NCBI RefSeq assembly: GCF_963921235.1
Contig: NC_086097.1
Span: 36,706,001-36,770,000 of the forward strand
DNA: 64,000 nucleotides
Reading direction: 5' to 3'
Source: Mobula hypostoma
Taxonomy: Eukaryota
Under the pieces are notes generated by a model. It had not been told where the DNA came from. It worked only from the letters and a program-made list of their open reading frames with translations, and made no database searches. Shown piece by piece: positions 9,236 to 64,000 of the stretch. A program made the position numbers and the translations under genes. How positions within the stretch are numbered: position 1 is the first letter of the stretch; the number at the start of each line of letters is the position of its first letter.

Positions 9236-9269
<34 letters not shown>
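9236..9269. repeat. (TG)n microsatellite expanded from a Penelope-family terminal fragment
   Basis: GTTCCTCCAGCATTTTG followed directly by a (TG)n run. Confidence 0.9.
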
Positions 9270-11419: not shown

Positions 11420-12750
11420 CATCATAAGGTCAGGAGTGGGGTCATGCAATTATTACAAATGTTCAACTCCATGTTCTCAAGCTGAAGTCATACATGCATG
11501 CATACAGAAAGACCCAGACAACATTCAGGCTTTCATGGTAAGTGGGAAAGAGTATTCTTGCTACACAAGGCTATCTCCAACAAAAGAGAATCCAGTCAAC
11601 TACCCTACACATCAAATGACACTACTACAACTGAGATCCCCACCAATATCACCTCGGGAGTCTCCACACACCAGAGCTTTTAACTGGAGCACCCATATAA
11701 ATACTCGGCAACAACAGCAGCTCATATCTGGGTATCATATGGCAATTAATTCACTTCATGTCTCCCCAGTTCCATCATCTACAAGGCACATCCAGACAAC
11801 AAACAAGAGAAAATCTGCAGATGCTGGAAATCCAAGCAACACACACAAAATGCTGGAGGAACTCAGCAGGCCAGGCAACATCTATAGAAAAGAATACACA
11901 GTCACCATTTTGGGCCGAGACCCTTCATCAGGACTAGTCAAAAAGGCGATGAGAAGCCAGAGCAAGAAGGTGCAGGGATGGGAGGAAGAAGTACAAGAAG
12001 TGATAGATGAAACCAGGATGAGGGGAAAGGGTGAAGTAAAGAGCTGGAAAATTGATTGGAGAAAGAAACAGAGGCCTGGAGAATGGGGAATCTGATAGGA
12101 GAGGACAGAAGGACAAGGGAGAAAGAGAAGGGGGAGGAGAACCAGAGGGAGGTGATGGGCAGGTAAGGAGATAAGGTGAGAGAGGCAAATAGGGAATGAG
12201 AAGGAGAGGTGGGGGGGGGGGGTTGCAATTACCAGAAGTTTGAGAAATTGATGTTCACATCAGTTCACATCAGGAGTACGGTGGATTTCCCTCTGCTTGC
12301 ATTAGAACTCAACTTCAGGAATGTGAATAAAATAAAGTGATTTGAACAAAGCAGCAGCTTGACTGGCACCCAGCCACGACCCAAAATTAATCTGTTGCAT
12401 CTCCAGAGCTGCAGTGTGTGTCATCTACTGTCAGCATAGCAGGGGCCCACCCTGATACACAGGGAACACCTCACAAGTCACAGCCCCTGTACCACAAAGG
12501 CCAAGAGCAGCAGACAAAGGGGAATGCCATCACCTGTAGATTTCCCCTCACACTGCACACCATCCTCACTTAGAAATATATCACCGGTCTCTCATTATGG
12601 CTGGGTCTAAATCCTGGAGCTCCATGCCCAACCTGACACTAACTAGAGCGGCTCAGGAAAGGAGCTAGACAACACCTTCTTAAGATCACCTGAGGATTAG
12701 CAATAAATGTTCATCGTCCTAGTGATGCACCCATTCTGTAAAAAATGACA
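11420..12750 (+). mobile_element. Old CR1/L2-group LINE 3' region interrupted by a Penelope-like fragment
   Basis: CIQKDPDNIQA...NWSTHINT resembles RT LQxDLDxIxxW...WxxHI. The 3' part after ~12270 matches a second copy at ~47125-47410. Confidence 0.65.
11797..12270 (-). mobile_element. Penelope-like element terminal region (pLTR) with decayed hammerhead motif
   Basis: Same family as 39450-40230 and 40465-40725. Reads CTGATGAAGGGTCTCGGCCCAAAATG, i.e. the GAAA core is mutated. Confidence 0.8.
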
Positions 12751-15679: not shown

Positions 15680-16680
15680 ACTGGTGATTAATGGTGTTCC
15701 ACAGGAGTCTGTGTTGGAACCGATTCTTTGTACATTATATGTCAGTGATTTGGATGATGCAGTTGATGGCTTTGGTGCAAAGTTTGTAGATAATATATAG
15801 ATAGGTAGAGGGGCAGGTAGAAAGGCTACAGAAGGACTTGGACAGATTAGGAGAATGGGCAAAGAAATGGCAGATGGAATACAGTGTTGGGAAGTGTATG
15901 GTCATGCACTTTGGTAGAAGAAATGAAAGCATTGACTATATTCTAAATGGAGAGAAAATTCAAAAAAGTGAGGCACAATGGGACTTGGGGGTCCTCGTGC
16001 AGGATTCCCTAAAGGTTAATTTGCAGGTTGAGTCTGTGGTGAAGAAGGCAAATGCAATGTTAGCTTTCATTTCAAGAGGACTAGGATATAAAAGCAAGGA
16101 TGTAATGTTGAAACTTTATCAAGCACTGGTAAGGCCTCACTTGGAGTATTATGACCACTTTTGGGCCCCTTAGAAAGGATGTGATGAAACTGCAGAGAGT
16201 CAAAGGAGGTTCATGAAAATGTTTCCAGGATTAAATGGCTTGTCATATGAGGAGCCTTTAATGGCTCTGGGCCTGCACTCACTAGAATTCAGAAGAATGA
16301 GGGATGACCATATTGAAACCTAGCAAATGGTGAGAGGCCTTAATAGAGTGGATGTGGAGAGGATTTTTTTTATGGTGGGAGGGTCTAAGACCAAAGGACA
16401 CAGCCTCAGAATAGAGGGGCATCCTTTTACAGCAGTGATGAGGAGGAATTTCTTTAGCCAGAAAGTGGTGATCTGTGGAATTCTTTGCCACAGGCAGCTG
16501 TGGAGGCCATCTTTATGGCAGAGGTTGACAGATTCTTGATTGGTCATGGCATGAAGAGGTATGGGGAAAAGTCAGGAGATTGGGGCTCAGAGGAAAATTA
16601 GATCAACTGTGATGAAATGGCAGAGCAGACTCAATGGCACAAACGGCCTAAATATGCTCCAAATCGCTTATGGTCTTATA
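15680..16680 (+). mobile_element. 5'-truncated CR1 LINE (RT C-terminal half, decayed)
   Basis: GVPQESVLEP, DRLGEWAKKWQMEYSVGKC, LYQALVRPHLEY; CTTATGGTCTTAT tail. Confidence 0.92.
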
Positions 16681-20499: not shown

Positions 20500-22275
20500 T
20501 CTGAAGTTTCTTCAGATACATAGAGTGTAAAAGAGAGGCAAGAGTGGATATCAGACCACTGGAAAACAATGCTGGAGAGGTGGTAATGGGGGACAATGAA
20601 ATGGTGGACAAACTGAATAAGTATTTTGCATCAGTCTTCACTGTGGAAGACACTAGCAGTATCGTGGAAGTTCCAGCTGCTGGGGGCGTGAAGTGCGTGA
20701 AGTTACCATAATTAGACAGAAGGTTCTTGGGAAACTGAAAGGTCTAAAAGAAGATAAGTCATCTTGACCAGGTGGTGTACACCCCAGGGTTCTGAAAGAG
20801 GTGGCTGAAGAGATTGTGGAAGTATTAGTAATGATCTTTTTAGAATCACTAGATTCTGGAATGGTTCCAGAAGATTGGAAAATTGCAAATGTCACTCCAC
20901 TCTTCAAGAAGGGAGAGAGGCAGAAGAAAGGAAACTATAGGCCAGTTAGTCTGACCTCTGTGGTTGGGAAGATGTTGGAGTCGATTATTAAGGATGAGCT
21001 CTCCGGGTACTTGGAGGCACATGATAAAATAGGCCATAATCAGCATGGTCTCCTCAAGGGAAAATCTTGCCTGACAAATCTGTTGGAACTCTTTGAAGAA
21101 ATAACAAGCAGGATAGCCAAAGGAGAATCACTTGATTTTGTGTACATTAATTTTCAGAAGGCCTTTGACAACATGCCACACATGAGGCTATTTAACAAGC
21201 TTTGAGCCCATGGTATTACAGGAAAAGTTCCCAGCATGGATAAAGCAGTATCTGATTGGCAGGAGGTAAAGAGTGGGAATGAAGGGAGCCTTCTCTGGCT
21301 GGCTGCCAGTGGCTAGTGGTGTTCCACAGGGGTCTGTGTTGGGACGGATTCTTTTTACATTATATGTCAATGATTTGGATGATGGAATTGATGGCTTTGC
21401 TGCAAAGTTTGCAGGCGATAGGAAAATAGGTGGAGGGGCAGGTAGTTTTAAGGAAGTAGAGAGGCTACAATAAGACTTAGACAGATTAGGAGAATGAGCA
21501 AAGAAATGGCAGATGGAATACAGTGTTAGAAAGTGTATGGTCATGTACTTCGGTAGAAGAAATGAAAAGGTTGACAATTTTCTAAATGTATAGAAAATAC
21601 AAAAAACTGAGATGGAAAGGGACTTCAGAGTCCTTGCGTAGGATTCCCGAAAGGTTAATTTTAAGGTTGTGTCTGTGGTGAGGAAGGCAAATGTGATGTT
21701 AGCATTCATTTCAAGAGGACTAGAATATAAAAGTAAGGCCTCATTTGGAGTATTGTGAGCAGGTTAGGGCCCTTATCTTGGAAAGGACATGCTGAAACTG
21801 GAGAGGGTTCAAAGAAGCTTCATGAAAATGATTCCAGGGTCGAATGGTTTGTCATATAAAGAGTATTTGATGGCTTTGGGCCTGCATTGGGGGTGATCTC
21901 ATTGAAACCTATCAAATGGTGAAAGGCCTTGATAGAGTAGATACAGAGACGCTGTTTCCTGTGGTGTGACCAGACGACACAGCATCAGAATAGACAGTCG
22001 TCCTTTTAGAACGGCGATGAGGAGCAATTTCTTTAACCAGAAAGTGGTGAATCTATGGAATTCTTTGCCACAGGTAGCTGTGGAGGCCAAGTCTTTATGT
22101 GTATATAAGGCAGAGGTTGATAGATTCTTGATTGGTCAGAGCATGAAGGGATAATGAGGAGAAGACAGGAGATTGGGGCTGAGAGGAAAATTGGATCAGT
22201 TATGATGAAATGGCAGAGAGGATGAAATGGGCCAAATGATCTAATTCTGCTCCTATATGGACTTATGGTCTTAGG
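20500..22275 (+). mobile_element. 5'-truncated CR1 LINE (~1.8 kb) with disrupted RT
   Basis: VPEDWKIANVTPLFKKG, NYRPVSLTSVVGK, INFQKAFD, SGVPQGSVLG, KFAGD (FADD mutated); multiple stops; CTTATGG tail. Confidence 0.95.
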
Positions 22276-23205
22276 GTCTAAGAAGTAATGGTGTACCATC
22301 CTGGGATGGAATGGAGTGAGGATCATGCTGAAAATCATGGAGTCAGGCTCCAGATAGGAAGGATAAGGGGTGAGCAGGTGTGGAGGGTGCAGGAAACAAT
22401 ATCGGCTCTTTCACAAAGGCTGAAATTCGTGGCAGTGGGAGGTCAGTTGCTCGTGAGAGTTGCACTATTTCTGTGGCATTTTGGCAGAGCTGAGTAGCAA
22501 AGAGTGGGGAACAGGCTCAAGAAACTACTGGAATGAGGTAGGTGAGGGGCAAAAAGGGGAGGGCTGGTTAATGAGTGTTTTTATTTATTCTGCGGGGCTT
22601 AGTGTTATCTGCAGAGCTCTGTACACAGCAGGCTAGGAAAGGGCCTGGCAGAGGGAGATGCAGGCTATCAGAGTCCTTTTATAATTGTAAGCTTCAGAAC
22701 CTGTCTCTCATTCAAGTTAATTGCAGTCAACCACGCACAGGTATACAGCTAAATGAAACATCATTCCTCTGGGACTACCAAAATTGGCAGGTTGATATAA
22801 AGTGTGACGTGCATGTTTATGAGGACAGTAGAACATTACTGAAGGACACATGGACGTCCTCTTGTATATTTAAAGGGATCTGCACTGATTTATAATGGCT
22901 ATCAGAATCATCAAGACCAGAGAGGCCCTATACAGCAGTGGCCCAAAGCTGATATTCAATGTACTCAATTCAGACCCATTAGCCTGCTGTAGCAGTGAAT
23001 CCAAATACTGTAATTCCTTAAACTGGATTCAAATCATCTCTAACAGATGACCTTTTTTTATGCCACGGAGCCTTACGATTAACTGAGAGGTCCTTGGACC
23101 CCAGGTTTGGAACCACTGTTTTCAGTCAACCTTATTCCCTTTTTTTGTACATCGACAAGCTGCAATAGAATCAAAGGTTGGAATGTTGAACACACTGGAA
23201 GTGTA

Positions 23206-24160: not shown

Positions 24161-27032
24161 CTGCCAGAAAATGTCAGTCATAAACATAAGGTGCTTTTTT
24201 AATTGCTTGCTGTGCTGAAGATTCAGAATCTGAATCTGATTTATTATCGCTGACATACGTCGTGAAATGTGTCGTTTTTCGGCAGCAGTGCAGCACAAAT
24301 CATAAAAGTTGTAAGTTACAATAAGAAATATCTAAAAAAAAACAAGTAGTGCACAAAGAGTGCAAAATAGCAAGGTATTGTTTGTGGGTTGATGGACTGT
24401 TCAGAAATTTGATGACAGAGGGAAGAAGCTGTTCCTAAAGTGTTGAATGTTTATTTTCAGGCTCCTGTTCCTCCTTCACAATGTCAGTAATAAGAGGAGG
24501 GTTTTCTGTTGAACAACTGAGAAGGCAAATGCTGAGATAACTGCTTCCTCTGGTGGAACAGACAAAATTAGGAAGCAGGGTCTCATTTTAAGAAGTTGGA
24601 CATTAAGCTTGCGGGAGAAACATCACTACCCCAAGGAGCTTGGACTGCTCTATAACAGAGTGTGGAGGATGCTCACTCACTGAGGGTACTCAAGACTGAA
24701 ATCAGTAGATTTATAAATTTGAAGGGACTGAAAGGATACAGTACAAAAATACACAAGCTGCAGGATCAGGCTTCATCCTGCAGAGAGGCAGTGCAGGTCT
24801 GAGCAAACACTAGCAACAGCAGAGGCTGGAATCTGGAGCAACAAGTCATCTGCTGGAAGAATACAGCAGGCGAAGCCGCATCCAGGGTGAGGGGTGGGAT
24901 TTGAGGCCCTTCACCAGGCTTGAGGAGAGTCTGTGGCTGACCTCCGTTCATCTTTCCCGTGTTTTCTGTTTCCCTTTCCACAGATGCTGCCCGACCCACC
25001 ACTGTGTGTTTGCAGCATCTTCAGTTTAAATGTCAGACTTACAGCACCTGCAGTATTTTGGCATTGCTCTGAAGGTTATTGTTGAGTCATGCAATAAAGC
25101 ACACAGTAATGTTTTCCTTAGTTTTTGAGACCTGCCCACACTTGTCTTTTTTAAAATTTACTGCATGAGATCTGGATCCTAGGTGGAATAAGCTAACAGT
25201 GAACAGATGGTGGAGAAGTGAATGATGGGTTGATACAGCCCCATCCTTTAAAATGACTCTCATTAGGTGCACCGGCTAGTCTGCAGATTTTGTGTCAAAC
25301 CTGCAATATTGTTGCAGTACTGTCTGGTCAGTTCAGCAAGGACAAGATTATGCTTTGAATGCTCCTTTAAAACATGGCTGGGTGGTTAGCAAGGTTTTAA
25401 TTGACAATATGTGACTACATTTTAGGACCCTGAGGCAGAGATCCAAAAGCTTGGTTAATGGGAGGGCTTAAGAGGAGACTGAGAGGCAGGCAGCTGAGTG
25501 AGAGAATCCCAGAGCTCCAGCCTGGACATACTTGAGCAAAGCAAAATGGGGAAGGGGTAAGGGGTGCACAAGAGTCTATGGACCTGGATATCGGAGGAGA
25601 AAAGATCTCTCATTAAATGATGGACCAGGTGGTGGCTGATGAGGTGTGGAGTAGGAACCAGCCCACAGTTTCTGGGATGAGCTCAAGGCTGTGGCTGATG
25701 GGAGTAGGGAGGGGAAGAGAAGACATGGCTGAGCAAGTCAGTAACAGATGGCCTGAAGCAGGAAGGGAGACACACAGCTCGGTAAACAGAAGCTGTGTGA
25801 AATCACTTCCAGGGAGGTGCAAATGTTATTAAAAAATACATTCCCTGAACATTTTTGGAACTTGTTCACACTGACTTTCATTGGGGCCTGTGCATAAATA
25901 GCTAATTTACTTGTTTTTTTTGTTATTTAGAGATCCAGCACTGTAACAGGTCCTTCTGGCCCAATGAGCCCACACCGCCCAATTACTCCAATGCAACCAT
26001 TTAACCTGCATCATAAGAATATGGGAGGAAACCCACACAGTCACACTGAGAATGTACAGATTCCTTACAGACAGTGACAGAACTGAACGCGGGTCGCTGG
26101 TGTGATAATTGTGCTAAACTATACGCTACACTACCCTGCCACTCCACTTGAGAACAGAACCCTGAAAAATATTCTGCTAGCCAGAGGGAAGCCAAAGTAG
26201 CAGGCGATATTAAAAATGTACCATTCTGTAAATGAACTCACACAAGATGCTGGAGGAAGTCAGCAGGCCAGGTAGCATCTATGGAAAAGAGTAAACAGTC
26301 AACATTTCAGGCCGAGACCCTTCTTCATTCTGCAGATGGTAACCTTTGTTTCTTATGCAGAGCATTCCCAGTGCCCCAGAGTGAATGGGTTTGGGGCCTG
26401 GGTTTAAAGGATCACAGGGTTAGTGAACTAAATCTGAGGAGCATCAGGTGACAATGGCCAGGGTCAAGAGATGAGGGAGTCTGAGGAAGACGGGGAGAAG
26501 ATGTTGGTCGGTGGTGTTCTGGAGGATTGGAATGGTTTGAGTCACAAGAAAGCAATATCAAGGGACTGTGGTGGTTAGGGTGGAGAAGTTGGGGAGAGGC
26601 ATACTGGGTGGGTGGGATCCTGACCGATGAGTTAAGAACTTGCAGTCAGGGGATCCTAATCCAGTGATGTTGAAAGTGGCCAACTACGATTGTTCCTTAG
26701 TCAGTGTGTTTTAAACTCCTGGCAATGCTCCAAAACAAGCACCACATTGACCCATTCATGAATGACGTGGAAATCAGGACAGGAAATAAGAGTGAGTAAA
26801 TCCAGGGAATGGACAATAAACCATCAGAAGTGAAACCCTGAAATGGTTATCATATTTTACTCTGGCAGAAAATAATCCGTTATTGGGCAATACAGAATTT
26901 AAAACAACATAGTTTTATTGTATTTCCAGATAAATATTCAGCAAGATCTTCACACTGGGCTCTCCCCTTTCTAATACAGATCCATAAAATATTGTCATTC
27001 ACAGCTGTTCTTCATAAGTGCTCCTTATTAAC

Positions 27033-30239: not shown

Positions 30240-30849
30240 ATACTCGAATACTTATTATGAACATGTGAAAAAAGGAATATTCTCTATCGCTAAGATGCAT
30301 ATGTCTCCAATTAAACCATAATCAATTAAAAAGGAATTAATAAGTGATGCAGAGCGATTAGGAAGTTGATGTCTAGATGATGATTTATCTAATAAAGGAT
30401 TTAAGCAAGTATTAAAATCTCCACCCATTAATAAAATATATTCATTTAAATCAGGTAATGGAGCGAAAATATCTTTAAAAAATGAAGGATCATCAGCATT
30501 TGGTCCATATATATTAACCAGAACCATTTTCTTATTGTAAATTGTTCCTTTAACAATCAAAAATCTACCATTAATATCAGATATAATATCCTCCTGATTA
30601 AAGGGAATATTGGAATCAATAAAAATGGAAACACCCCTAATTTTACTTTGAGAGTTTGCGTGAATCTGAGGGACCTTCCAAAATTTTAAAAAATTGTTTT
30701 TTATCACATAACCTGACATGCGTCTCTTGTGCAAAAATAATATCAGGTTCGAATCGATTAATAATTTTAAATGTTTTCTTACACTTAATAGGATGATTCC
30801 AACCACGGACATTCCAACTTAAAACATTTAACTGTTTAAGTAACATCAT
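30240..30849 (-). mobile_element. L1-clade LINE ORF2 endonuclease (APE) fragment, frameshifted
   Basis: LSWNVRG, DIIFAQETH, RGVSIFI, GRFLIVKG, LVNIYGPN, MGGDFN, REYSFF; frameshift near 30700. Confidence 0.92.
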
Positions 30850-31359: not shown

Positions 31360-32120
31360 ATAAGACCATAAGACTATATGACAAAGGAGCAGAAGTCGGC
31401 CATTCGGCCCATCGAGTCTGCTTCGTCATTTTATCATGAGCTGATCCATTCTCCCATTTAGACACACTCCCCCACCTTCTCACCATAACCTTTGATGCCC
31501 TGGCTACTCAGATACCTATCAATCTCTGCCTTAAGTACACTCAATGACTTGGCTTGCACTGCTGCCCTTGGCAACAAATTCCATAGATTCACCACCCTCT
31601 GACTAAAAAAATTTCTTCGCATTTCTGTTCTGAATGGGCGCCCTTCAATCCTTAAGTCACGCCCTCTCGTACTAGACTCCCCCATCATGGGAAACAACTT
31701 TGCCACATCCACTCTGTCCATGCCTTTCAACATTCAAAATGTTTCTATGAGGTCTCCCCTCATTCTTCTAAACTCCAAGGAATACAGTCCAAGAGCGGAC
31801 AAACGTTCCTCCTATGTTAACCCTTTCATTCCCAGAATCATTCTAGTGAATCTTCTCTGTACCCTCTCCAACGTCAGCACATCCTTTCTTAAATAAGGAG
31901 ACCAAAACTGCCCACAGTACTTCAAGTGAGGTCTCACCAGCACCTTATACAGCCTCAACATCACACCCCTGCTCCTATACTCTATTCCTCTGGAAATGAA
32001 TGCCAACATTGCATTCCCCTTCTTCACCACCAACTCAACCTGGAGGTTAACCTTGAGGGTATCCTGTACGAGGACTCCCAAGTCCCGTTGCATCTCCGAA
32101 CTTTGAATTATTTCCCTATT
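31360..32120 (-). mobile_element. CR1 LINE 3' fragment
   Basis: RDLGVLVQDTLKV, LYKVLVRPHLKYC, RNFFSQRVVNLWN; ATAAGACC tail at ~31360. Confidence 0.95.
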
Positions 32121-32329
32121 TGCATAGCCCAAATGCATATGTCATTCAATGTGTACAGCCTGGTTCTGCTAATCTATCTTCTGCCTGCTGAAAGTGAGGG
32201 TCAGCTAACTTTGGGGTAGCTGATGGCCAAGGAATTGGCGACTGGAAGGTTGGTTTTTCTGTGATTTAGGTGGAAGACAGGCAGTCTGGCAATAGATGCA
32301 TCACGACAGACCCTACAGAATTACGTGGT

Positions 32330-34187: not shown

Positions 34188-35004
34188 GGGGTACAACCAC
34201 ACAATCACCTGGCTCCACCAAATCGCTGATGGGCATAACTTCCTACCACTGCAAGGCGTGGGCAAATCGTAGGGGCCACATCACGTAGCTCAGGAAGGAC
34301 GTGAACACTGTTAATGTGACCAGTGACAGGAGAATCAGTGAAACACGTGACATAGTAATTTCCAATAAAATTCGAGGTTGGCCGGTGCTAGGAAGAACTC
34401 ATCTAGGTGTTAATACATTCCCAAACCCTCATATTCCTAGAATGAACACATCTGCTTTCTCTTAAATACTCCGATTTCTGCCAGGTGGTTGGAAATGTGT
34501 GCTGTGCACGCCATGATGTCATTTGGTGCTTACTGATGCATTTGCTTTAAAGTAACCACAATCGGTCATTCCTAGGTCAATTTCCCAATAGTTGGTTTCG
34601 CTCAGAAGTGATCACTACAACAGACTTCCCCAAATAAAACTTGTCAGAGACTTGTTTCATGTAAAACTTTTGGGGCTGATGTTTCATTTCTATTACAAAC
34701 ACTGAGCAACAACATATTTGTTAAACTCTGTAACTTCAGCACCATATTAAGGTACATGCTCTCGTGCAACATACTGCAGAACCCAGCAGACAACACTTCC
34801 ACCTCAGCGCCAGGACCTTACCAGGACTTGCCATGTTGTCCCCTCAAAGTCTCAGTTTCTGTGCCAATGGCATCAACATCTGCCCTATAATACTAACTCA
34901 GGCTGCTCCTGGGTCACTCCAGTGGACTTCTGAATGATCCCATAGAGTGAGCTGTCACGTCTTGGCAGAAGAAACTTGCCCATGAAGCTGTGGCGAGGTT
35001 AAAC

Positions 35005-35100
35005 TCCTGATGAAGGGTCTTGACCCAAGATATTGACTCTTCATTCCTCTCCATAGATGCTGCCTGACCCGCTGAGTTGTTCCAGTAATACGTGTGTTTT
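35005..35100 (+). mobile_element. Penelope-family pLTR fragment with decayed hammerhead
   Basis: CCTGATGAAGGGTCTTGACCCAAGATATTGAC...GATGCTGCCTGACC; further copies at ~35962-36098 (+) and ~26237-26325 (-). Confidence 0.75.
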
Positions 35101-36450
35101 ACTGTGAGTTTATACTGGTGTTAACACTGTTGCCCCATTTAAAAGAAGTGCAAAAAATGCCTGCTAGGAGAAAGCAATTACTTTTTATCAATTATTCAAG
35201 TTTGTTTCAATATTTTGAGTTAACTTTTAGTGAGTGAACGTGTTCTTTTTAAGTTAAATGTGTAAAATAACTTTAAATATTTTAAACATTATTTTTAGAC
35301 TTAAGTTTAAACTTCAATCTTACTGAATATTGGTGAATTTTAAAAGATACAAAACATTTGATCTGAAGCACTGGCTCCAACAGCTCTGAACCCGAGGACT
35401 AGAGCCTCACCCAGCAGCTTTCAAAGTCATCCTGCAAGTCTGGCATGTTATTTGTGCTGAGACAGACTATTTGCTGCTCCTCTCAGCTCCAAAGAGCTAG
35501 GAGCCAGGCTTCCAATAGGAAAATGGAACTGGTGCTGCCTGAATTGCTGAGTTCCTCCAGCATTTTGTGTTTTTTACTCTGGATTACCAGTGTTTTCAAC
35601 AGACAATAATACTAGGGACCACACTGAAAGAAACGTCATTGGACAGGAGTAAGCAGCCAGCGATTTTAACGCAATTCATCCCACAGTAGCTTGCAAAACA
35701 ATAAAAAATTTGATTCTATGTGACGAGCCAATCATTTAGATCCAAGCCTCGTACTTTCCTCGTACTCTTCTAACATTGCCTTTGGAAGCAAGTATGGCGC
35801 CTATTTGGACTACTCTTCAACACTTTGAAAATCAAAAGAGTAAATAGTTTTAATCTCTGGTTTTCTGGTGGCCTTAATCTCATGCCTTCTCAGATTTGGC
35901 AGTCTCAGTTAAACCTCCCCTTCCTCGCTGCTATAATAAAAAGCACACTGATTTATCTGTGCCAGTCTCGATGAAGGGTCTTGGCCCAAAATGTCGATGG
36001 TTTTTATTCCTCTCTGTGGTTAATGCCTGAACTGCAGAGTTCCTCCAGCATTTTGTATGTGTTGCTTTGGATTTCCAGTATCTGCAGAATCTCTTGTGAC
36101 ACTGACTTACCTACTTTTTTTACCAGAATGAAAGTCCTTCAGTCCCAATGACATCTCACTAAACCCTTCCATCACCTCTTCCTTGGCTCTGCCATCCAAT
36201 CTAAAGCAAAGACTCCAAAACTGCACCACAACATCTTGAAATAGCGGTTTAAACAATATTTTTGCCAACTCTTATTTAAGCTCCCTTACACTTTTTCTTT
36301 GCAGCTTCTAGCAACTTGTCCTCCTACTCATGCTGTCATCTGAAAATCTACGCCCACAAATGCAAAGAATTTAATGCATTATACATAGAAAATAAACAAA
36401 TATGTAAGTGCAAAATAACCCACATTAGGATTTGGATTTAATTATTTTAC

Positions 36451-38790: not shown

Positions 38791-39449
38791 GTTCAACTCT
38801 TCTGTGCCCAAAAGATCAAATTCAAGATTCTTAACTGGTTTTGTTACAGTTCGTTCATGGGTGAGTAAAATTATTTTCAATTGCTTAATGTGGAAGTTAG
38901 CAACTTTTTTTGAGATTGAATTTTTAAATGTCCCACTTCAACTTCATCAGCACTGAGCAATAAAACTAATGTTAATCGGCAGCAGTGAACCTCTGTATTC
39001 CAATTGGATTCCTTCTGATCCAGAATTCACTTTGCAAAAAATTCAGAAACTTGCCTAAGGAGAAGGGACGGGAACTGTGTTATTCACCAACTCCTTACTA
39101 TTACAGATAGGTGCAAATTTTTATTGCAATTTAACAAATGAGGAGCCATTTCACTTAGACACTTCAAGTGTAATCTAGTAATCTGAATTTTGTAAAACTA
39201 GTGCTGTTTCAGGGTTAATAGTAATAGGAGATGTTACGGGCATCTCACTCTTTTTTCCCAGAACAGCAATATGGGAATGTTTACTTTCTCTTGAGAGAAC
39301 ATTTAGTTTCATTCACAAAGCATAATTTCCTACAAATCAATTAACACAATGGTATGTCTTTCAATGTTTTTGTGTTCAAGTCTCTGGAACAAACACAGAG
39401 CCTTCTGATTCAGAGATGAGTACAAAACCAACTGAACCATATCTGATCA

Positions 39450-40225
39450 AAACTCACACAATGCTGGAGGAATGCAGCAGGCCAGACAGCATCCAAGGTA
39501 AAGAGTAGACAGATGACGTTTCATGCCAAGAAAAGATGAGAAGTCAGAGCAAGAAGGTGGGGGGAGGGAAGGAAGAAGGTGAAGGGTGAAACCAGGAGAG
39601 GCGGGGGGTGGGGAGGGAGGAAAGCATCTGGTAGGTTGATTAGTGGAGATAAAGGTCTGGAGAAGGAGGGATCTGATAGGAGAGGGTAGAAGACCATGGA
39701 AGAAAGAGAAGGAGAAGCACCAGAAGGAATGATGGGCAGGGAAGGAGATCAGGTGAGACAGGGAAATGGAAATGGGGGAATGGTGAGGGGGAATTTCTCA
39801 GAAGTTTGAGAAATCAATATTCGTGCCATCAGGCTGGAGGCTACCCAGACAAAATACAAGGTGTCGCTCCTCCAACCTGAATGTGGCCTCATCGTGGTAG
39901 TAGAGGAGAACGTGGACTGACATGTCGGAATGGGAATAGGAAGTGGAACTAAAATGGGTGGCCACTGGGGAGATCCTGCTTTTTCTGGAGGACAGAGCGT
40001 AGTTCCTCAGTGAAGCAGTCTCCCAATCTACGTGGGATCTCACCGCTCTATAGGAGGCCACACCAGGAGACCTGGATACAGTAGATGACCCCAACAGACT
40101 CACAGGTGAAGTGTTGCCTCACAGGGAAGGACTGCGTAGGGCCCTGAATGGTAGTAAGGGAGGAGGTGTAGGGCCAGGTGTAGCACTTGTTCTGCTTGCA
40201 AGGAAAAGTACCAGGAGGGAGATCA
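39450..40225 (-). mobile_element. Penelope-like retroelement 3' part: GIY-YIG endonuclease C-terminus plus pLTR
   Basis: PVATHFSSTSYSHSDMSV...RLEERHLVFCLGSLQPDGTNIDFSNF resembles the Neptune-type PLE GIY-YIG end (PVAxHF...RxxxExxxIxxLxTLxPxGxN). Confidence 0.88.
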
Positions 40226-40464
40226 GTTACAGTTTAACATCAATGCTGTTGCGCAGGTTTAAGCTAAGTCTAAGCATGCAAGATATTATTGTTCTTCTTT
40301 TCTCAAGAGACTAAGGAGCCACAGGAATCAGTTGTAAACTGACATTATAGCAGCTGGCTCTCTTCCATTCTTAAGAAGAATAGGGGCTGATAATTCACGA
40401 TGGCATAGAATAGAGAGCATAGCAGACGGATTAAAAGGAAGCACATGGTAGTCATAATTTTCTG

Positions 40465-40725
40465 AACAAGAGAAAATCTGTAGATGTTGGAAATCAAAGC
40501 AACACACAAAAATGCTGGAGGAACTCAGCAGGCCAGGCAATATCAATGGAAAAGAGTTAACAATCGACGTTTCGGGCTGAGACTCTTCATCAGGACTGGA
40601 AAAAATGATGAGAAATCAGAGCAAGAAGGCGGGGGGGAGGGGGAGGAAGTACAAGGTGGTAGGTGATAGGTGAAACCGAGAGAGGGGAAAGGGTGAAGTA
40701 AAGAGCTGGGAAGTTGATTGGTGAT
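40465..40725 (-). mobile_element. Penelope-like pLTR copy
   Basis: Clear similarity to 11797-12060; carries an intact hammerhead core. Confidence 0.85.
40561..40598 (-). ncRNA. Minimal type I hammerhead ribozyme motif
   Basis: CAGTC-CTGATGA-A-GAGT-CTCA-GCCC-GAAA-C-GTC-GATTG: stem I CAGUC/GAUUG, conserved CUGAUGA and GAAA core, GUC cleavage triplet. Confidence 0.75.
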
Positions 40726-43939: not shown

Positions 43940-44025
43940 TCATCGTCCCTGAAGAAGATGGTGGAGTTTGTCATTGAAACATTGGTTATAATCAATTGGT
44001 GCTGGATACCCGATAAGAGTTTATA
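43940..44025 (+). mobile_element. Solo decayed pLTR fragment of the second Penelope-like family
   Basis: CCCTGAAGAAGATGGTGGAGTTTGTCATTGAAACATTGGTTATAATC matches the reverse complement of 63757-63803. Confidence 0.75.
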
Positions 44026-46341: not shown

Positions 46342-47771
46342 CTAAAAGGCAATGTGGATAAAGGTGAAGTGATATTCAGGCATTTTACCTAAACTGATAG
46401 GTACTAACGTTAATTCTCAGTATCCAGAACATCAGCACGAATGTAGGGAAAACAGTAAACAAATTAACTGATTGGTCACTCAAATTCAGGTTCTGTGAAA
46501 CAGTAATCTTTCTATATTTAGAAACTATTAATTTTAAAAAAACCCTCAGGATGTGGTTTGATGAAGGCAGCTGCAAATGCACTGAAAGATCAGCGTTACC
46601 TAGTACAAAGAAACACAATTGATTTTCAAGACACCCACTGTCTTAAACATTCAATCCACCCTTCCTCTGAATTAGACCATAAAAGTATAATCCATAGGAG
46701 CAGAATTAAGCCAATCAGCCCATTGAATCTGCTCAGCCATTCCATCATAGCTGATTTATTTTCCCTCTCAAATCACACTCCTGCCTTCTCTCCATAACCT
46801 TTGATGTCCTTACTAATCAAGAACTTCCACTTCTAAGTATACCCAACTAACGCTGTTATAAGATTGTCGACTGGATCCCTGGAATGATAAGATGAATTCT
46901 TGACCTCACAGTCTACAACGTTATGACCTTGTGCCTTATTTTCTACCTGCACTGCACTTTCTCAATGGGTGTTACATTTTATTCTGTATTCTATTAGTCC
47001 TTTACCTTATAATATCTTAATTTATGTGGAATGGTTTGATCTGTATGCAAGACAAACTTTTCTTTATACCTCAGTATACATGACAATAATACACTAATTG
47101 GAATTCTCAAAAAAATCCCCTCTCCATCTACAAGGTGCCCTGCAGCAAGTTGCCAAAGATTTTTTCCTAATAATTGCTTCCAAACCTACATCCACAATTG
47201 AGGAGAGCAAAGGTAGCAGGTGATTTAAGCACCATTGTCTTCAAGACCTCCTTCCAATCATATACCATCTCAACTTGGCAATATTCTACCATTACTTCTT
47301 TTCAACTGGGTCAAGATCCTGAGGCTCTGTTAATAATAGCACTGTGGGAACTCCTTACCATACATGATGAAAAAGTTCAAGGCAGTCGCTTATCACCACC
47401 TTCTCAAAAAGCGCCCACATCCCAGGAAAGGGTTTACATTAAAATAAATCATTTGCCACCCACTTAACATGCAAAGTTCAGAACTAATTCCGTATCTATT
47501 CATGCATTCTTCTGCTAATGCTTCATAAACCTTTCTTGTATCCCGTCCAAGGTTCCCTTGCTCATCAGAAAAATAACATTATCTTCATTGGGAAAACATC
47601 CAACCTCTTTCTCTCACAAGTCTCTTCATTCACTCCATGCTGCTGTGAAGAGTGCAAATAACAAGACAAATGGAGAATAGGGAGGGGAAAGGGAGAAGAA
47701 CACTGGAATGAGATCACTTAAAATCACCTAAGAGGCGAAGAGGCGAAGAGGCAAAGAACTTAAAGTAAAAT

Positions 47772-47955
47772 ACACAAAAAGCTGGAGCAACTCAGCAGAT
47801 CAGGCAGCAACTATGAAGAAGAATAGCAAGTTGAACCAAGTCCCTTTATCAGAGGACCTAATGCTTTTCCATAGATCCTACCTGACCTGCTGAGTTGCTC
47901 CAGCATTTTGCGTGTGTTACACTGGATTTCCAGCATCTGCAGAGTCTCTTGGGTT
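47772..47955. repeat. Inverted pair of Penelope-family pLTR fragments (hairpin)
   Basis: ACACAAAAAGCTGGAGCAACTCAGCAGATCAGGCAGCAACTATG versus CATAGATCCTACCTGACCTGCTGAGTTGCTCCAGCATTTTGCGT; arms of ~45 bp. Confidence 0.85.
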
Positions 47956-49209
47956 TGTTTTGAGACTAAGAACTTGCCTCGGCAACAGAATTAAAACACA
48001 TTTGGAACCCGTTTATTTTACCAATGATTACATTATGAGAAGCCCAAATATGGTGTTGGTGATGCCAGTACTCTACCAGGGCTAACTGATGTTGCTTTCC
48101 CTTCACTTCCAGCACTGCATGAGTCTGCGGCTATGCAGGATTCCTCAGACCTCATTCTTCTGAGACTGCACCAGCACAGAACTGAAAAGCACACTTTCAT
48201 TATGCACTTACACTTCAGTGCGCCCTGTCAGAGGATTAGCAGGCACCAGCAGCAGTGTCAACCGTAACGATTAAAGGTCAGCTTGGCTGGTTGTGGTTGA
48301 GGAAGAGAATGGTGGAGTGTGGTACAAACTTTTTGATTAACTGTCAGGATTGCCTTATAGACTCACTCACTGGGAGAAAGCAGGAATCTGTGTGATATGT
48401 GGTTGCCAGTGAGCCAATTGGGTGGGTACCTGCCAATCAAGTGGTGCGCCAAGTAACCATCCAGTGTTGGCCATAGCCCTTTACTTTTGCAGCTTCACGT
48501 ATGGCTCTCAAACAAGATGGAGAATTCCTTTTAATCCACTTATTTGCTTGCTGAACATTTGAGCTGTTAAATCACCTCAGGCAGTGGGTCATTGATAGAT
48601 GAGACTCAACCTTCTCACAAGGTACGTGTCAAGTCCCCAGAATATCTCTTGCTTTACTGTACAATGTATCACACAGGGAAACACGAAGATATTCACCACA
48701 ATTATCTGGCCACACTTGCTGGCAGGCACTGAGGAAACCCAGTGACATGAGCCTGTGCCTTGCCTGCTAATAGAACTGACGGCCATGTGGTTCGTATTGG
48801 GGATTCCCAAGACCCATTCATTAAGTTCTTTGCTGACAAGTTTGAAGGAGGCATCTACTAGCATCTGACAGCCAGTCCTTACTTCTGTTTTCTGGTGTGA
48901 ACAGGCTTGGGACTTAGGAAAGCACAAATCACTTCAACCATTCCCAGTATAGAAACGAATCCTTTGGCCTAAATCAGCCATGCCAACCAAGGTGTCTAAC
49001 TAAGCTAGTCCTATTTACCCGCATTTGACCTGTAATCCCTCTAAACCTTTTGTATCCATATAATTATCCCGATGTCTTTTAAATGCCAATATTACACCTG
49101 CCTCAACCACTTACCCTGGCAGCTTATTCAATGCCTTATCTTGAAACTATTTCCCTATCTAATCCCCTTCTTGCCCTAGTTCCATGTTTTCCCCACCAGC
49201 AATTAGAAC

Positions 49210-52494: not shown

Positions 52495-54095
52495 TCCAAA
52501 TAAACAATATCTACTAACTGTCCTTTGTCTAACCTCCCTGATACAAATTTGCCAGGCAATCTGCTGACTTTGGCCTGTTTTATCATGTGTGTCCAAGTAC
52601 CCTGAAACCTCTCCTTTATAATGGACTCCCACCTTCTTCCCAACCACTGAAGTCAAACTAACTGGCCTATGTTTTCCTTTCTCCTGCCACCCTCCCTTTC
52701 CAAAAAGCGCAGCGACGTTTGTAATTTTTCAGACCTCCGGAGCCAGTCCAGAATCTAGCGATTCTTGAAAGGTCAGTACTACTGAGTCTACGATCTCTTC
52801 ATCAGTACTAATGATCCTTTCGGAACCCTTGGGGTGTCGTCCATCTGGTCTAGGTGACTTATCTACCTTCAGAACCTTCAGTTTCCCAAGCATGTTGTCC
52901 TTTGTAATAGAAACTACACTCACTTATGTTCCCTGACACTCTCGAATTTATTGCATACTGCTAGTGTCTTCCATAGTGAAGATGCAGAATACATATTAGG
53001 TTCAACTGCCATTCCTTTGCCTCCCATTACTACTCCTCCAGTGTCATTTTCTGGTGGTCTGATATCCATTCTCACCTCTCTTTTATTCTTTATATATCTG
53101 AAAAAAAACATTTGTATCCTCTTTTATATTATTGACTAATTTACCTACATATTTAATCTTTTCTCTCCTTATGGCTACTTTCAGCTGCCTTCTGTTGGTT
53201 TGTAAAAGTTTCCCAATTTTCTAACTTCCCAGTGATATTTCTAATTATATGCCACCTCTTGTTTTTCTTCTGCCTTTGACTTCTCTTGGCAGCCAATTTT
53301 GCATCATCCTCCCTTTAGAATAGTTTTTCCTTAGAATATATCTATCCTGCACCTTCTGATTTGCCCCTAGAAACTCGAATCATTGCTGTTCCGCCATCAC
53401 GTCTGCTCGTATCCCATTCTAATCAACTTTGGCTAACTCCTCTATAATTCCCTTTACTTCACTATAATACTGATATTTCTGACTATAGCTTCTCCCTCTG
53501 AAACCGCAGGGTAAATTCTATTATATTATGATCACTGTCTCCTAAGCATTCCTTTATCTTAAGCCCTCTAATCAAATCTGTTTTATTATATTACACCCAA
53601 TCCAGAAATGTCTTTTCCTTTGTGGGCTCAACCACAAGCTGCTCTATAAATCTCTATCTCATCGGCATTCCAGAAATTCCCTCTCCTGGGATCCAGCATC
53701 AACCTGACTTTCCCAATCTACCTGATTTTGGAAATCTCCATGACTATCGTAACATTGCCCTTTTAACATGTCCTTTCTGTCTCCCATTTTAACATGTACC
53801 CTACATCCTTGCTACTGTTTGGAGCTCTGTATATAACTTCCATCAGAATCTTTTTAGCCTTGCAGTTTCCTAACACTACTCACAAGGATTCTACATCTTC
53901 CATTCCTAGGTCATTTCTTTCCGAGGATTTGATTTCATTGTTTACCAACAGAGCTTCCCCACACCTTCTGCCTACCTGTCTGTCCTTTTGATACAACATG
54001 CTTCCTTGGATGTTAAGCTTTAACTATGACCTTCTTTCAGTTATGACTCAGTGATGCTCACAATGTCATACCTGCCAATCACTGAATGTGCTACA
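52495..54095 (-). mobile_element. Decayed CR1 LINE internal fragment (endonuclease to RT start)
   Basis: FFRYIKNKRE, LKVDKSPRPDGRHP, TSVVGK, VDIVYLD in different frames. Confidence 0.88.
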
Positions 54096-54099
54096 TGGC

Positions 54100-54435
54100 T
54101 ATGAGACCATAGGATATAAGATATTAGGCCATTCAGCCCATCGAGTCTGCTCCACCATTTCATCACAGCTGATTCAGTTTTCCTCTCAGCCCCAATCTCC
54201 TGCCTCCTCCCCGTATCCATTCATGCCCTGACCAATCAAAAATCTTTCAGCCTCTGCCTTAAATATACATAAAGACTTGGCATCCACAGCTGCTTGCGGC
54301 AAAGAATTCCAGATTCGCCACTCTGGCTAAAGAAATCCCTCCTTATCTCCATTCTAAAAAGACAGCTCTCTATTCTGAGGCTGTGTCCTCTGGTCTTAGA
54401 CTCTCCCACTGTTGGAACCATCCTCTCCACATCCA
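54100..54435 (-). mobile_element. CR1 LINE 3' end
   Basis: ESKTRGHSLRIE...RRDFFSQ; tail at ~54100. Confidence 0.88.
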
Positions 54436-55759
54436 TAAGGTTATGTACCTTATTCCGTATTCTGCGTGGATTGCGTGCATATGGTGACATGTACATGACT
54501 TTGATAACTAATTTATTTCAAACTTTGAAATTGAAATTGTACCATCCATCCAAATCATGAAAGGCAGTGATTAGTATTAAATATTTTATCCCACACATTT
54601 CTTGTATCACTAAGTAACCACATTGATGTTTGCCACAAGTAACTGATGACAACATTTGGATTAGAAAGACAAAACTGGGATGATTTACTTAGTCATACTG
54701 CCACACGCAGAGGAATATAAATTGACATCAAAGAGGCAAAAAAAAAAGCACATATCAAAAATAACACTGTTATTTCATTCTATGTGGATGTAGCAATACA
54801 AAGTGATATCCTGCATTCTGAACGCCACAGTAATTCTGCAACTAAATGTAGCCAAGGGATATATGTATAAATAAAAAAAAGTCCAGTTATTTGCAAGGAT
54901 GCAGTTTATTAAACACTGCAAGTCAAAAACTAGAGTAAACTGGCAAAATAAAGAAAAAATAATGCTTTAAAGTTGAACTCCACTCTTTCCTTAAAGTGGT
55001 AATTCCGTGCTACGAACAGTGCTCACATCCAGTTAGATTCCCTGCAAAAATAACTGTGGAGTAGGATGGTAAAGATATTGCAGTTTTAGGATGGCTTACA
55101 TCACACATTAAAACAGGATTTCCACTGTTCCTGATGAGGTACAGAGTCTAACAATTTGCTGAACAGCAAGTTGAGAAAGTTTAAAAGCCACAGCCCACAG
55201 CTGTGTAGAATCTAGGGGACTGACCAGGAGCACTAATACAGGCAGACGGGCAGGAGGTAGCTCCCAGTTGTGAGAATCTCCACTCAATTAATTTCACATC
55301 CTCACTTGGCATGTCTGGTGAGCTGTTCACAACTAAAAATCACTTACAAGTCATTCCAGTGCATGGAATGGAGATTTATTCATTCATGTATTATGATCAG
55401 TGACAGTGGTCCTGCCAAGGTACCTGTAAAGATTAACTCTGGGCTCATATAGCTGATTGCTGATAAACCATACTGGAGTCTAAAGAGAATCGCAAATAAT
55501 CTGTTGGAGGAACTCAGTGGGTTGAATCCCACCTCTGGGGAGAAAAGAATTTGCCCTACAGCAAGTCTTAACCCAAAACGTTAATAATTCCTCCGAATTC
55601 TCCTGTCACAAACAGTTGCTCAGCCAGCTGAGTTCTTTCAGCAGGTCATTTGCTGTTCCAGATTCCAGCATCAGCAATCGCTAGCAAAGAGAGTCACTTT
55701 AGATTAGGGACAATTAGCAAACCCCAGTGAAAGTAACTCTTAATCTGGGATGTTCGTGC

Positions 55760-60601: not shown

Positions 60602-62003
60602 CAGGGCCTTGAAAATGCATTCAGCCCCCATAACACTTTGCACATTTTACTGTCTCCTTTCTAAATTTAAAATACATTAAAGTAGAATTTTTGAACTAAT
60701 CTACAAAACATTGTGCATCATGTCAAATCAAAACAAAAATTCCAAATTCTCTCAACAATTTACTAAAAAATAAAAGCCACAATTGTGATGCTGTAAAATT
60801 ATTTACCCCCTTTGTAATTACTACGCTAACTTTCCTCTGTAGCAATATACTTTCTTACCAACTCACCCATTCTGTTGACGTAGAAAATTGGAGGATCACC
60901 TGTTTTCATAAGAATAAATACCCCCTCTCTCTGTAAGGTCCAACAGTATGGTAGATTTTCAATAGACCAAACCAAAATGAAGATAAAGGAGCATTCAAGG
61001 CAAGTCAGGGAAATGATAATAGGGGAGCACAAATCTGGGGAAAAGCACCAGACCTTTTCAAAGGCACTGAACATACCTTGCAGCTTAGTGCAGTCCATCA
61101 TGAAAAAGTGGAAAAAATATGAAACCACAGCCACACCGATTGGGTCAGGCTGCCCCTCACCAGAGAAGAACAGCACTTGAACGAGGGGCTACTGAGACAA
61201 CAGCAGTCACTCTGAGTGAGCTGCAGATGTCAGTGGCTGCAACTAAAAATGAATTTCATGGCTCCACAATCTCTAAGGCCTTGCAGATAAAGTGTATTTA
61301 TGGAAGAGTGACAAATAAGAAGCCTGGCAAAAAATAAAATCCACATCCTTGCCCATAAGGACTTTGTAAAGTGTCATTTAGAAGATACTGTAAAGATGTG
61401 GAAGAAGGACTTGAGGTCAGATGAGACTAAAGTAGAACTTTTTGGCCTCAACACTGAGCAGTACATGTGACAGGGATTTAATACTACGCATCAGCCAGGT
61501 AATACCATCCCTACTGTAAAGTATTGTGGAGGTAGAATCATGCTATAGGGATGCTTTTCAGCAGCAGTGACTGGAAGTCTGGTCAGGATTGATGGGAAGA
61601 TGAATGCTGACAAATATAGAGAGATTCTGGTTAGAAACCTGCTAGCCTTTGCCAGAAAGTTGAAACTGGGGAGGAAGTCTGTCTTTCAGCAGGACAATGA
61701 CCCAAAGCACACTGCCAGAACCACCACAGAATGGCTTCAGATGAAGCAAAGAGGGATGAAAACTTTGGAACTGCTGGCATTTCAGGTTTTGAATTTTTAG
61801 TTTTTCATGCTTTACAATTTTCCCTGCTTTTTTAAATTTATAAATCACATGCTCTTTTTTTCCCTGTTCTCTGCTGTGGAAAAAAAGAGTATGTGATTTA
61901 TAAATTTAAAAATTCAGCTAAATTGATAAAAATCCCTGGTTGTAATATTCATTTATCTGAACAAAGGGTGGGGGGGGGGGCTGAACACTTTTACAAGGTA
62001 CAG
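60602..62003 (+). mobile_element. Tc1-family transposon with defective, internally deleted transposase (starts 60977)
   Basis: TIRs CAGGGCCTTGAAAATGCATTCAGCCCC / GGGGCTGAACACTTTTACAAGGTACAG|TA. MKIKEHSRQVRE HTH, SDETKVELFG and FQQDNDPKH present; SPDLNPIE region missing. Confidence 0.92.
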
Positions 62004-63676: not shown

Positions 63677-64000
63677 TAAAGGAAAAAGGAGTTAGTGCTT
63701 TCCCAGTGTATATGATTAATAAACTCTTGTAGGGCTTCTGACCGGGTACAGGTATCGATTATAACCGACGTTTCGTTGACAAACTCTGCCATTTTCTTCA
63801 GGGATGATGCCTGGGCATGACTAGTCTGGTGGTATTTATACCCCAGCCCCTCATTCAATCATTCCTGATTGGTTAGTCTTCATTCAATCAGGTTTCCAAT
63901 CTCCCACCTTGTTTACAATCGAATTCCACTTCTTGCTTAGAGCGAGATCTTCGTCTTTGTTAAAACTCTTTTCCTTTAGTTTTATTTCAATTCTTTTCTT
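63677..64000 (-). mobile_element. Penelope-like element 3' end (second family), truncated by the window edge
   Basis: IEIKLKEKSFNKDEDLALSKKWNSIV resembles the Penelope/Poseidon GIY-YIG C-terminus (EAIEI...NFNRDxG..LS..W); followed by a pLTR with CTGAAGA...GAAACGTC. Confidence 0.85.
63763..63805 (-). ncRNA. Hammerhead-like motif with partly decayed stems
   Basis: CC-CTGAAGA-AAATGGCAGAGTTTGTCAAC-GAAA-C-GTC-GG: core intact, stem II base mismatched. Confidence 0.55.

Follow-up and report, generated by a model that had tools for sequence, protein, structure and literature searches.

A minimal hammerhead motif in the decayed 3′ end of a 5′-truncated Penelope-like element from a ray-type genome

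Introduction

Minimal hammerhead ribozymes (min-HHRs) of metazoan Penelope-like elements (PLEs) were defined in 2014 (Cervera and de la Peña, PMC4209133) and are present in the Xena, Poseidon and Neptune elements of fish. They occur mostly as single motifs on truncated copies, and their activity is nil in monomers and low in dimers. Cartilaginous fish are absent from the motifs of fig. S3 and table S1 of that study. According to another source (bioRxiv 10.64898/2026.07.22.740005), vertebrates carry Neptune and Poseidon only; it also describes animal non-LTR retrozymes, which are tandem arrays of pLTR-derived units with type I hammerheads, and reports hammerhead units arranged in tandem in a single cartilaginous fish, as well as cleavage by one of nine Xenopus dimers. 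In the Poseidon element PAc of Anolis carolinensis (Frangieh et al. 2024, PMC11167929), the hammerhead adjoins the ORF start and two 3′ termini define the tail. Protein was required for cutting of the Anolis motif, insertion in vitro did not depend on the motif, and RNA-seq showed no ends at its cut site. Neptune/Nematis-type PLEs (Craig et al. 2021, PMC8557442) encode a C-terminal GIY-YIG endonuclease after the RT, with a CX2-5CxxC linker and CCHH, and show strong 5′ truncation, an optional tail and inverted 5′-truncated partners. Our literature search, whose coverage was partial, found nothing relevant on hammerheads of chondrichthyan PLEs or on the ray family described here.

Here we analyse a motif at 40561–40598 on the minus strand of a 64-kb window, by which we mean the whole stretch of DNA studied. 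From sequence comparison and folding models we are confident that it represents a type I min-HHR sequence borne by the 3′ end of a dead, 5′-truncated Penelope-like stub and that this particular copy is probably inactive. The case extends the 2014 observation to a ray-type genome, and the copy is an ordinary decayed one among very many.

Identification of the hammerhead motif

The first-pass annotation of this DNA had proposed a minimal hammerhead with a loopless stem III, and its minus-strand reading of 40561–40598 agrees with the sequence letter for letter. The parts of the motif are as follows.

40594–40598 (−): stem I 5′ strand CAGUC, whose CAG closes a 62-nt AG-free pyrimidine tract
40587–40593 (−): core C3–A9, CUGAUGA, intact (sequence and descriptor)
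40586 (−): additional A separating A9 from G10.1, as is usual in min-HHRs (sequence; PMC4209133)
40574–40585 (−): stem-loop II, GAGU CUCA GCCC, with an A-C mismatch at 40584, where the family majority has G
40567–40573 (−): core G12–A14 and the loopless palindrome ACGU at 40570–40567 (sequence and descriptor)
40561–40566 (−): C17, where cleavage is predicted (after 40566), followed by GAUUG as the 3′ strand of stem I; in the family majority 40563 is C, which gives a G-C pair

Stem I (CAGUC/GAUUG) has five pairs including one G-U, the CUGAUGA and GAAA core is intact with the extra A following A9, and stem III consists of the palindrome A15.1-C15.2-G16.2-U16.1, all as annotated. The annotation had not mentioned the A-C mismatch, which falls on the second pair of stem II (GAGU/GCCC). 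Cleavage is predicted after C17, between 40566 and 40565.

Judged by its sequence, the motif matches the min-HHR of metazoan PLEs. It shares with the published type I motifs (PMC4209133) the CUGANGA and GAAA core with an NUH triplet, the extra nucleotide between 9 and 10.1, the G10.1-C11.1 pair (here G40585-C40574), a palindromic stem III without a loop (15.1–16.1 at 40570–40567; 15.2–16.2 palindromic in the published motifs), a short stem I and the occurrence mostly as single motifs on truncated copies. Many motifs of fig. S3 end their palindrome in the same C-G-U-C. Unlike the published motifs, stem II is short here (four pairs) and mismatched in this copy.

A chance look-alike would be one explanation of such a short motif, and two results could be read in its favour. 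The 38-mer folds no better than its own shuffles (z 0.64), and the Rfam search, which had been suggested as a check, gave 15 matches at E ≤ 10 over the whole window, none of them a hammerhead, so the Infernal/Rfam search does not detect this minimal form. We nevertheless regard coincidence as practically negligible. A min-HHR descriptor gave a single match in the 64-kb window versus one match in 300 dinucleotide-shuffled windows, both strands being searched in each case; the descriptor was composed after the motif had been seen and permits one stem II mismatch. Moreover, both stems improve in the family majority and the motif is located where published PLE hammerheads sit. The Rfam matches to MIR2118 and mir-605 were rejected as inverted repeats far under the gathering score.

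The carrier element

The motif lies in a 260-bp repeat copy, and a longer copy of the same family (39441–40227) follows 240 bp downstream on the same strand.

40465–40724 (−): whole 5′-truncated Penelope-like copy, 260 bp, with pyrimidine-rich 3′ region, hammerhead motif and 3′ tail
40465–40543 (−): 3′ tail of this copy; family copies mostly end at 40509 or 40465
39798–40227 (−): decayed ORF end of the longer copy, interrupted by one stop and one frameshift, with the remnant of a linker zinc finger and a GIY-YIG endonuclease
39441–39797 (−): 3′ region of the longer copy; its hammerhead is without the CUGAUGA half

The stub aligns to the 3′ region of the endonuclease-bearing longer copy with 66.5 % identity (E 2e-12). 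Four public runs were mapped at 80 % likeness onto a 1361-bp stretch (X1 gave 94,903 contigs), and contigs run from the 5′ edge of the stub at 40724 into 39646 (21 in X1, 18 in X5, 6 in X20 and 4 in X19). The stub is therefore a 5′-truncated retrotransposon end and not a SINE. The term SINE-like, used in the first-pass annotation, has to be given up, as the repeat runs on into the end of a GIY-YIG endonuclease gene and no tRNA gene was found in the window.

We also considered that the repeat might not be the end of an autonomous PLE but a non-autonomous SINE or a tandem retrozyme. Most window copies are indeed shorter than 140 bp, and four of 14 have their first base no more than six bases from the edge of stem I, a possible sign of a short unit of its own, but the 5′ ends of the copies spread from +95 to the ORF, and the copy at 40465–40724 has a further 126 bases on the upstream side of stem I and is linked by contigs to the copy with the ORF. 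Tandem retrozymes have been reported from one cartilaginous fish (bioRxiv 10.64898/2026.07.22.740005). There the units stand in tandem arrays; here we see dispersed single stubs, with no tandem array of the unit and no head-to-tail hammerhead units in the window. No tRNA-like head was found in the window either, and decayed heads can escape detection. Taken together, a SINE or retrozyme origin seems very improbable, and we continue with the end of a PLE.

The nature of the coding part was inspected using the read-through endonuclease fragment. Its first 85 residues match six of 34 candidate proteins with 72–86 % identity, and all six come from two rays, Mobula hypostoma and Hypanus sabinus, in agreement with the earlier description of the element as a ray repeat. 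The fragment is 76 % identical to a Mobula protein and 73–77 % identical to two Hypanus proteins. The GIY-YIG domain (PF01541) was recognised in three of the six at E 5e-4 to 2e-3, which is under the curated cut-off. The ray relatives carry a YIDD motif, a CX4CxxC linker, a CxxC within the GIY-YIG core and an HxH after it. The linker zinc finger is present in P0002 and P0003, and its last Cys is altered in the window copy. The GIY-YIG/CCHH endonuclease is decayed in the window and intact in ray relatives. The RT domain is seen through relatives and not in the window: YIDD is found in P0002, and PF00078 in most of the longer relatives (85 of 3112 candidates, up to 52 % identity). Pfam searches with the window's own endonuclease fragments gave no match, and the last 54 residues of the endonuclease stretch found no relative when used as query. 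The ray gene models P0002–P0007, named 'uncharacterized' or 'mucin-2', are pieces of the ORF of the carrier retroelement and look like mis-annotated transposon copies.

By the definitions of PMC8557442, these sequence features make the carrier a C-terminal-endonuclease PLE of the Neptune/Nematis type, an assignment based on domains that does not separate Neptune from Nematis. The strong 5′ truncation, the optional tail and inverted 5′-truncated partners (about 47756–47959) are further likenesses to this group; a difference is that the window has the 3′ end only. A 5′ pLTR and an RT gene would be expected from the relatives; the full-length element was not recovered, and the 64-kb window holds no full-length copy with tandem or partial-tandem units forming two pLTRs. 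In the copy at 11798–12256, where the 3′ repeat alone is seen, the hammerhead stands about 290 bases past the ORF stop. The proposal that a Penelope-type minimal hammerhead sits in a pLTR-type 3′ end is upheld by this architecture and by the link to the GIY-YIG gene end.

The two 3′ termini of the family copies (40509 and 40465) are 44 nt apart in AT-rich flanks, which fits the optional tail of PLEs (PMC8557442, PMC11167929). A special 3′ structure in the hairpin-like tail was discarded, as the fold was no better than shuffles (z 0.30 and −0.72). The tail contains a decayed start codon at 40543–40541, which is ATG in the family majority (84 % at 40541). By analogy with PAc, in which the hammerhead also adjoins the ORF start (PMC11167929), it is likely the start of the ORF of the next unit. 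PAc differs in that it is without the linker zinc finger class and has its start codon at stem II, whereas the candidate ATG of the ray family is 18 bases past the motif.

Copies of the family in the window and their decay

The 3′ end occurs in 14 copies in the 64-kb window, on both strands; a fifteenth candidate near 9240 failed to align and was dropped. The first-pass annotation had cited four of them.

11798–12256 (−): 459-bp copy, from ORF end to tail; hammerhead at 11899–11936, G12 and triplet lost
26235–26327 (−): short copy starting inside the core at U4; C3 and the stem I 5′ strand absent; motif at 26296–26327
35002–35110 (+): short copy with damaged GAAA and triplet, stem II GGGU/ACCC; motif at 35002–35039
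35963–36097 (+): short copy with C3, U4 and G12 changed; motif at 35963–36000

All four exist, pair at all four stem II positions and have damage in the core or triplet, as had been said; two of them (35002–35039 and 35963–36000), however, lie on the opposite strand. An intact core is found in none of the 13 other family copies in the window. The copy at 40561–40598 keeps every conserved core base, as do none of the five other copies that include this region, and it is on this account less decayed than its neighbours.

The abundance claimed for the repeat is borne out by the X1 contigs, in which the summed depth is 17.6 on the unique flank versus about 847,000 at the motif (~48,000x, a ratio that is not a copy number). 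The family majority has G at 40584 in 88–93 % of the depth in the four runs, which restores the G-C pair of stem II, and C at 40563 in 87–92 %, which makes stem I fully Watson-Crick. These two differences come from the 40 entries listed of 230, and unlisted entries say nothing on the core; the core is intact in the loose-end consensus of the family contigs. A consensus lacking complementarity or core conservation had been named as an argument against the hammerhead, and the majority in fact pairs fully in stems I and II and keeps the core. Stem covariation among six window copies is limited to one one-sided change (U-G to U-A at 35005), with no two-sided compensatory change.

Relative to a majority computed from the same six copies, the copy at 40561–40598 has three changes and the others have four to ten. 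CpG sites were changed in 18 of 48 cases and other sites in 16 of 158 (Fisher p 3e-5), a test that is partly circular, since the majority was derived from these copies and built with a CpG rule. The result supports the earlier suggestion of CpG decay, which accounts for much of the damage to the copies. The motif contains four CpGs, and three of them lie at G12, in the palindrome and at C17-G1.1; decay by methylation would therefore strike catalysis first.

A contig of a second organism covers 40198–40493 with six differences, therefore the insertion is common to both organisms. The unique flank 40274–40411 was covered in the DNA runs and uncovered in two presumed RNA runs, which concerns contigs only and has no bearing on expression. 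A pile-up of molecule ends was likewise absent from the listing, a feature that contigs would not reveal. The 30–32-nt pattern of the family tail had no matches in viral contigs and none in metagenome contigs.

Two more diverged tails, at 55565–55676 (+) and 24804–24923 (−), look like an older subfamily of the same Penelope-like element. Head-to-head inverted pairs of Penelope tails are present at 47756–47959 and about 24804–25059, and the former yields the spurious MIR2118 match.

Predicted activity of the copy

Cleavage of the motif as a dimer only is taken over from the literature, where it is low (PMC4209133) or protein-dependent (PMC11167929). The models suggest that the copy at 40561–40598 could hardly take part in it on its own. 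Its predicted stem II pairing probability is 0–0.19 versus 0.9–1.0 in the computed majority, and the skeleton of a double hammerhead has −1.5 kcal/mol in the homodimer of this copy versus −19.9 kcal/mol in that of the majority. Even for the majority, the lowest-energy predicted dimer is an extended duplex (−33.7 kcal/mol) and not a hammerhead fold; this modelled preference is in line with the low activity published for such dimers. A hybrid of this copy with the majority sequence has a skeleton of −10.7 kcal/mol, and its GUC with the stem I 3′ strand could in principle serve as a substrate for an intact partner elsewhere.

The first-pass annotation had suggested that several copies in one transcript might cleave it. 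The same-strand neighbours at 1.0, 14.2 and 28.6 kb are without, respectively, the CUGAUGA half, C3 with stem I, and G12 with the triplet. The partner energies are +15.6 for the copy at 39530 (CUGAUGA lost), +1.2 for that at 26330 (which starts at U4) and −6.3 for that at 11935. There is no same-strand copy with an intact catalytic half in 64 kb. Among 287 non-repeat open frames of at least 55 aa there were two Pfam matches, both pieces of DNA transposons, so no host exon was found; short exons and a long intron would escape such a search. Cutting by a neighbouring copy in one transcript is thus unsupported, because the copy's own stem II is broken and neither an intact same-strand partner nor a host exon was detected.

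The broader alternative is that this copy still functions as one partner in a double hammerhead and that other members of the family cleave it, in cis or in trans, within host transcripts. In its favour, neither core nor triplet is damaged, the abundance of the family is extreme (by the depth at the motif, which is not copy number) and the hybrid with the majority sequence has the skeleton energy given above, yet the broken stem II, the damaged same-strand neighbours and the lack of a host exon among the open frames count against it. So do the published systems: dimers cut weakly (PMC4209133), the Anolis motif was uncut without its protein and had no RNA-seq ends at the cut site (PMC11167929), and eight of nine Xenopus dimers showed no cutting (bioRxiv 10.64898/2026.07.22.740005). 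We give this alternative very little credence and prefer an inactive copy.

Proposed life cycle of the intact element

How the intact element might use its hammerhead can be proposed by analogy with relatives in the literature. Transcription of tandem units would yield a single RNA, in which two hammerheads may pair via their ACGU palindromes and swap stem I strands. Each would then cut after GUC, probably aided by the element's own protein. Reverse transcription, initiated in the adjoining downstream tail, would in most cases end prematurely and so give short stubs all carrying the 3′ end. Neutral decay of the stubs would then proceed most rapidly at the motif's four CpGs.

A different role is conceivable, in which the family motif serves the retroelement mainly as a structure for protein binding or splicing, with cleavage as a side effect. 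In vitro, insertion by the Anolis element was unaffected by hammerhead mutations (PMC11167929), Naiad elements spread although they lack canonical hammerheads (PMC8557442), and a candidate splice acceptor overlaps stem I. However, the letters of the catalytic core are kept both in the family majority and in a second family of the window (43949 and 63801), which fits selection on catalysis, and cutting of the Anolis motif does occur once its protein is supplied (PMC11167929). We consider such a role rather unlikely.

A single stub is of little weight alone and does not by itself make the question of the hammerhead's role in endonuclease-bearing PLEs (PMC8557442, PMC11167929) testable. The abundance of the family, on the other hand, would make it good material for this question through genome-wide 5′ ends, intron strand bias and mapping of RNA ends.

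Candidate splice sites and 5′ ends at stem I

In both long copies, AG-free tracts of 62–64 bases with 81–84 % pyrimidine (40599–40660 and 11937–12000, both on the minus strand) end in YAG inside stem I. The end of the intron lies likewise within stem I in Penelope of Drosophila virilis (PMC4209133). A second pyrimidine run ends in AG directly before an ATG at 11881, and the frame stays open to the end of the copy at 11935. A tentative and, in our opinion, doubtful possibility is that splicing switches the ribozyme: use of the first acceptor would cost stem I three of its five pairs, and use of the second would leave the mRNA without the ribozyme. If so, only the unspliced, transposing RNA could cut, and a defined RNA end at this place would also explain the short copies that start at the stem I edge. 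No splice junction was present among the 15 joints listed of 1375.

Copies beginning at +1 to +6 of stem I number four of 14 by local alignment (26327, 35005, 35964 and 47852) and five by nhmmer. When five of 11 short copies were taken to start there, the simulated p was 0.03 if the 9-base window could lie anywhere and 0.0007 if its place was fixed; the sample is small and the result is weaker with four.

Other repeats in the window

A second, unrelated family with the minimal hammerhead layout is found at 43941–43996 (+) and 63754–63809 (−). It has CUGAAGA, an extra A, a longer stem II and GAAAC GUC, and its stems differ from those of the ray PLE family. Both copies contain mismatches. Stem II opens with an ATG, a placement shared with the Poseidon element of Anolis.

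An AT-rich inverted repeat at 61827–61913, nearly perfect and with arms about 35 bases long, is the source of the mir-605 Rfam match. Fragments of Tc1/mariner-type transposases (DDE_3, HTH_SB) occur at 2304–2516 and 60884–61177. Finally, decayed LINE-like repeats with RT or endonuclease-like frames are located at 15689–16679, 20507–22281, 30255–30818, 31360–32121 and 52562–54435.
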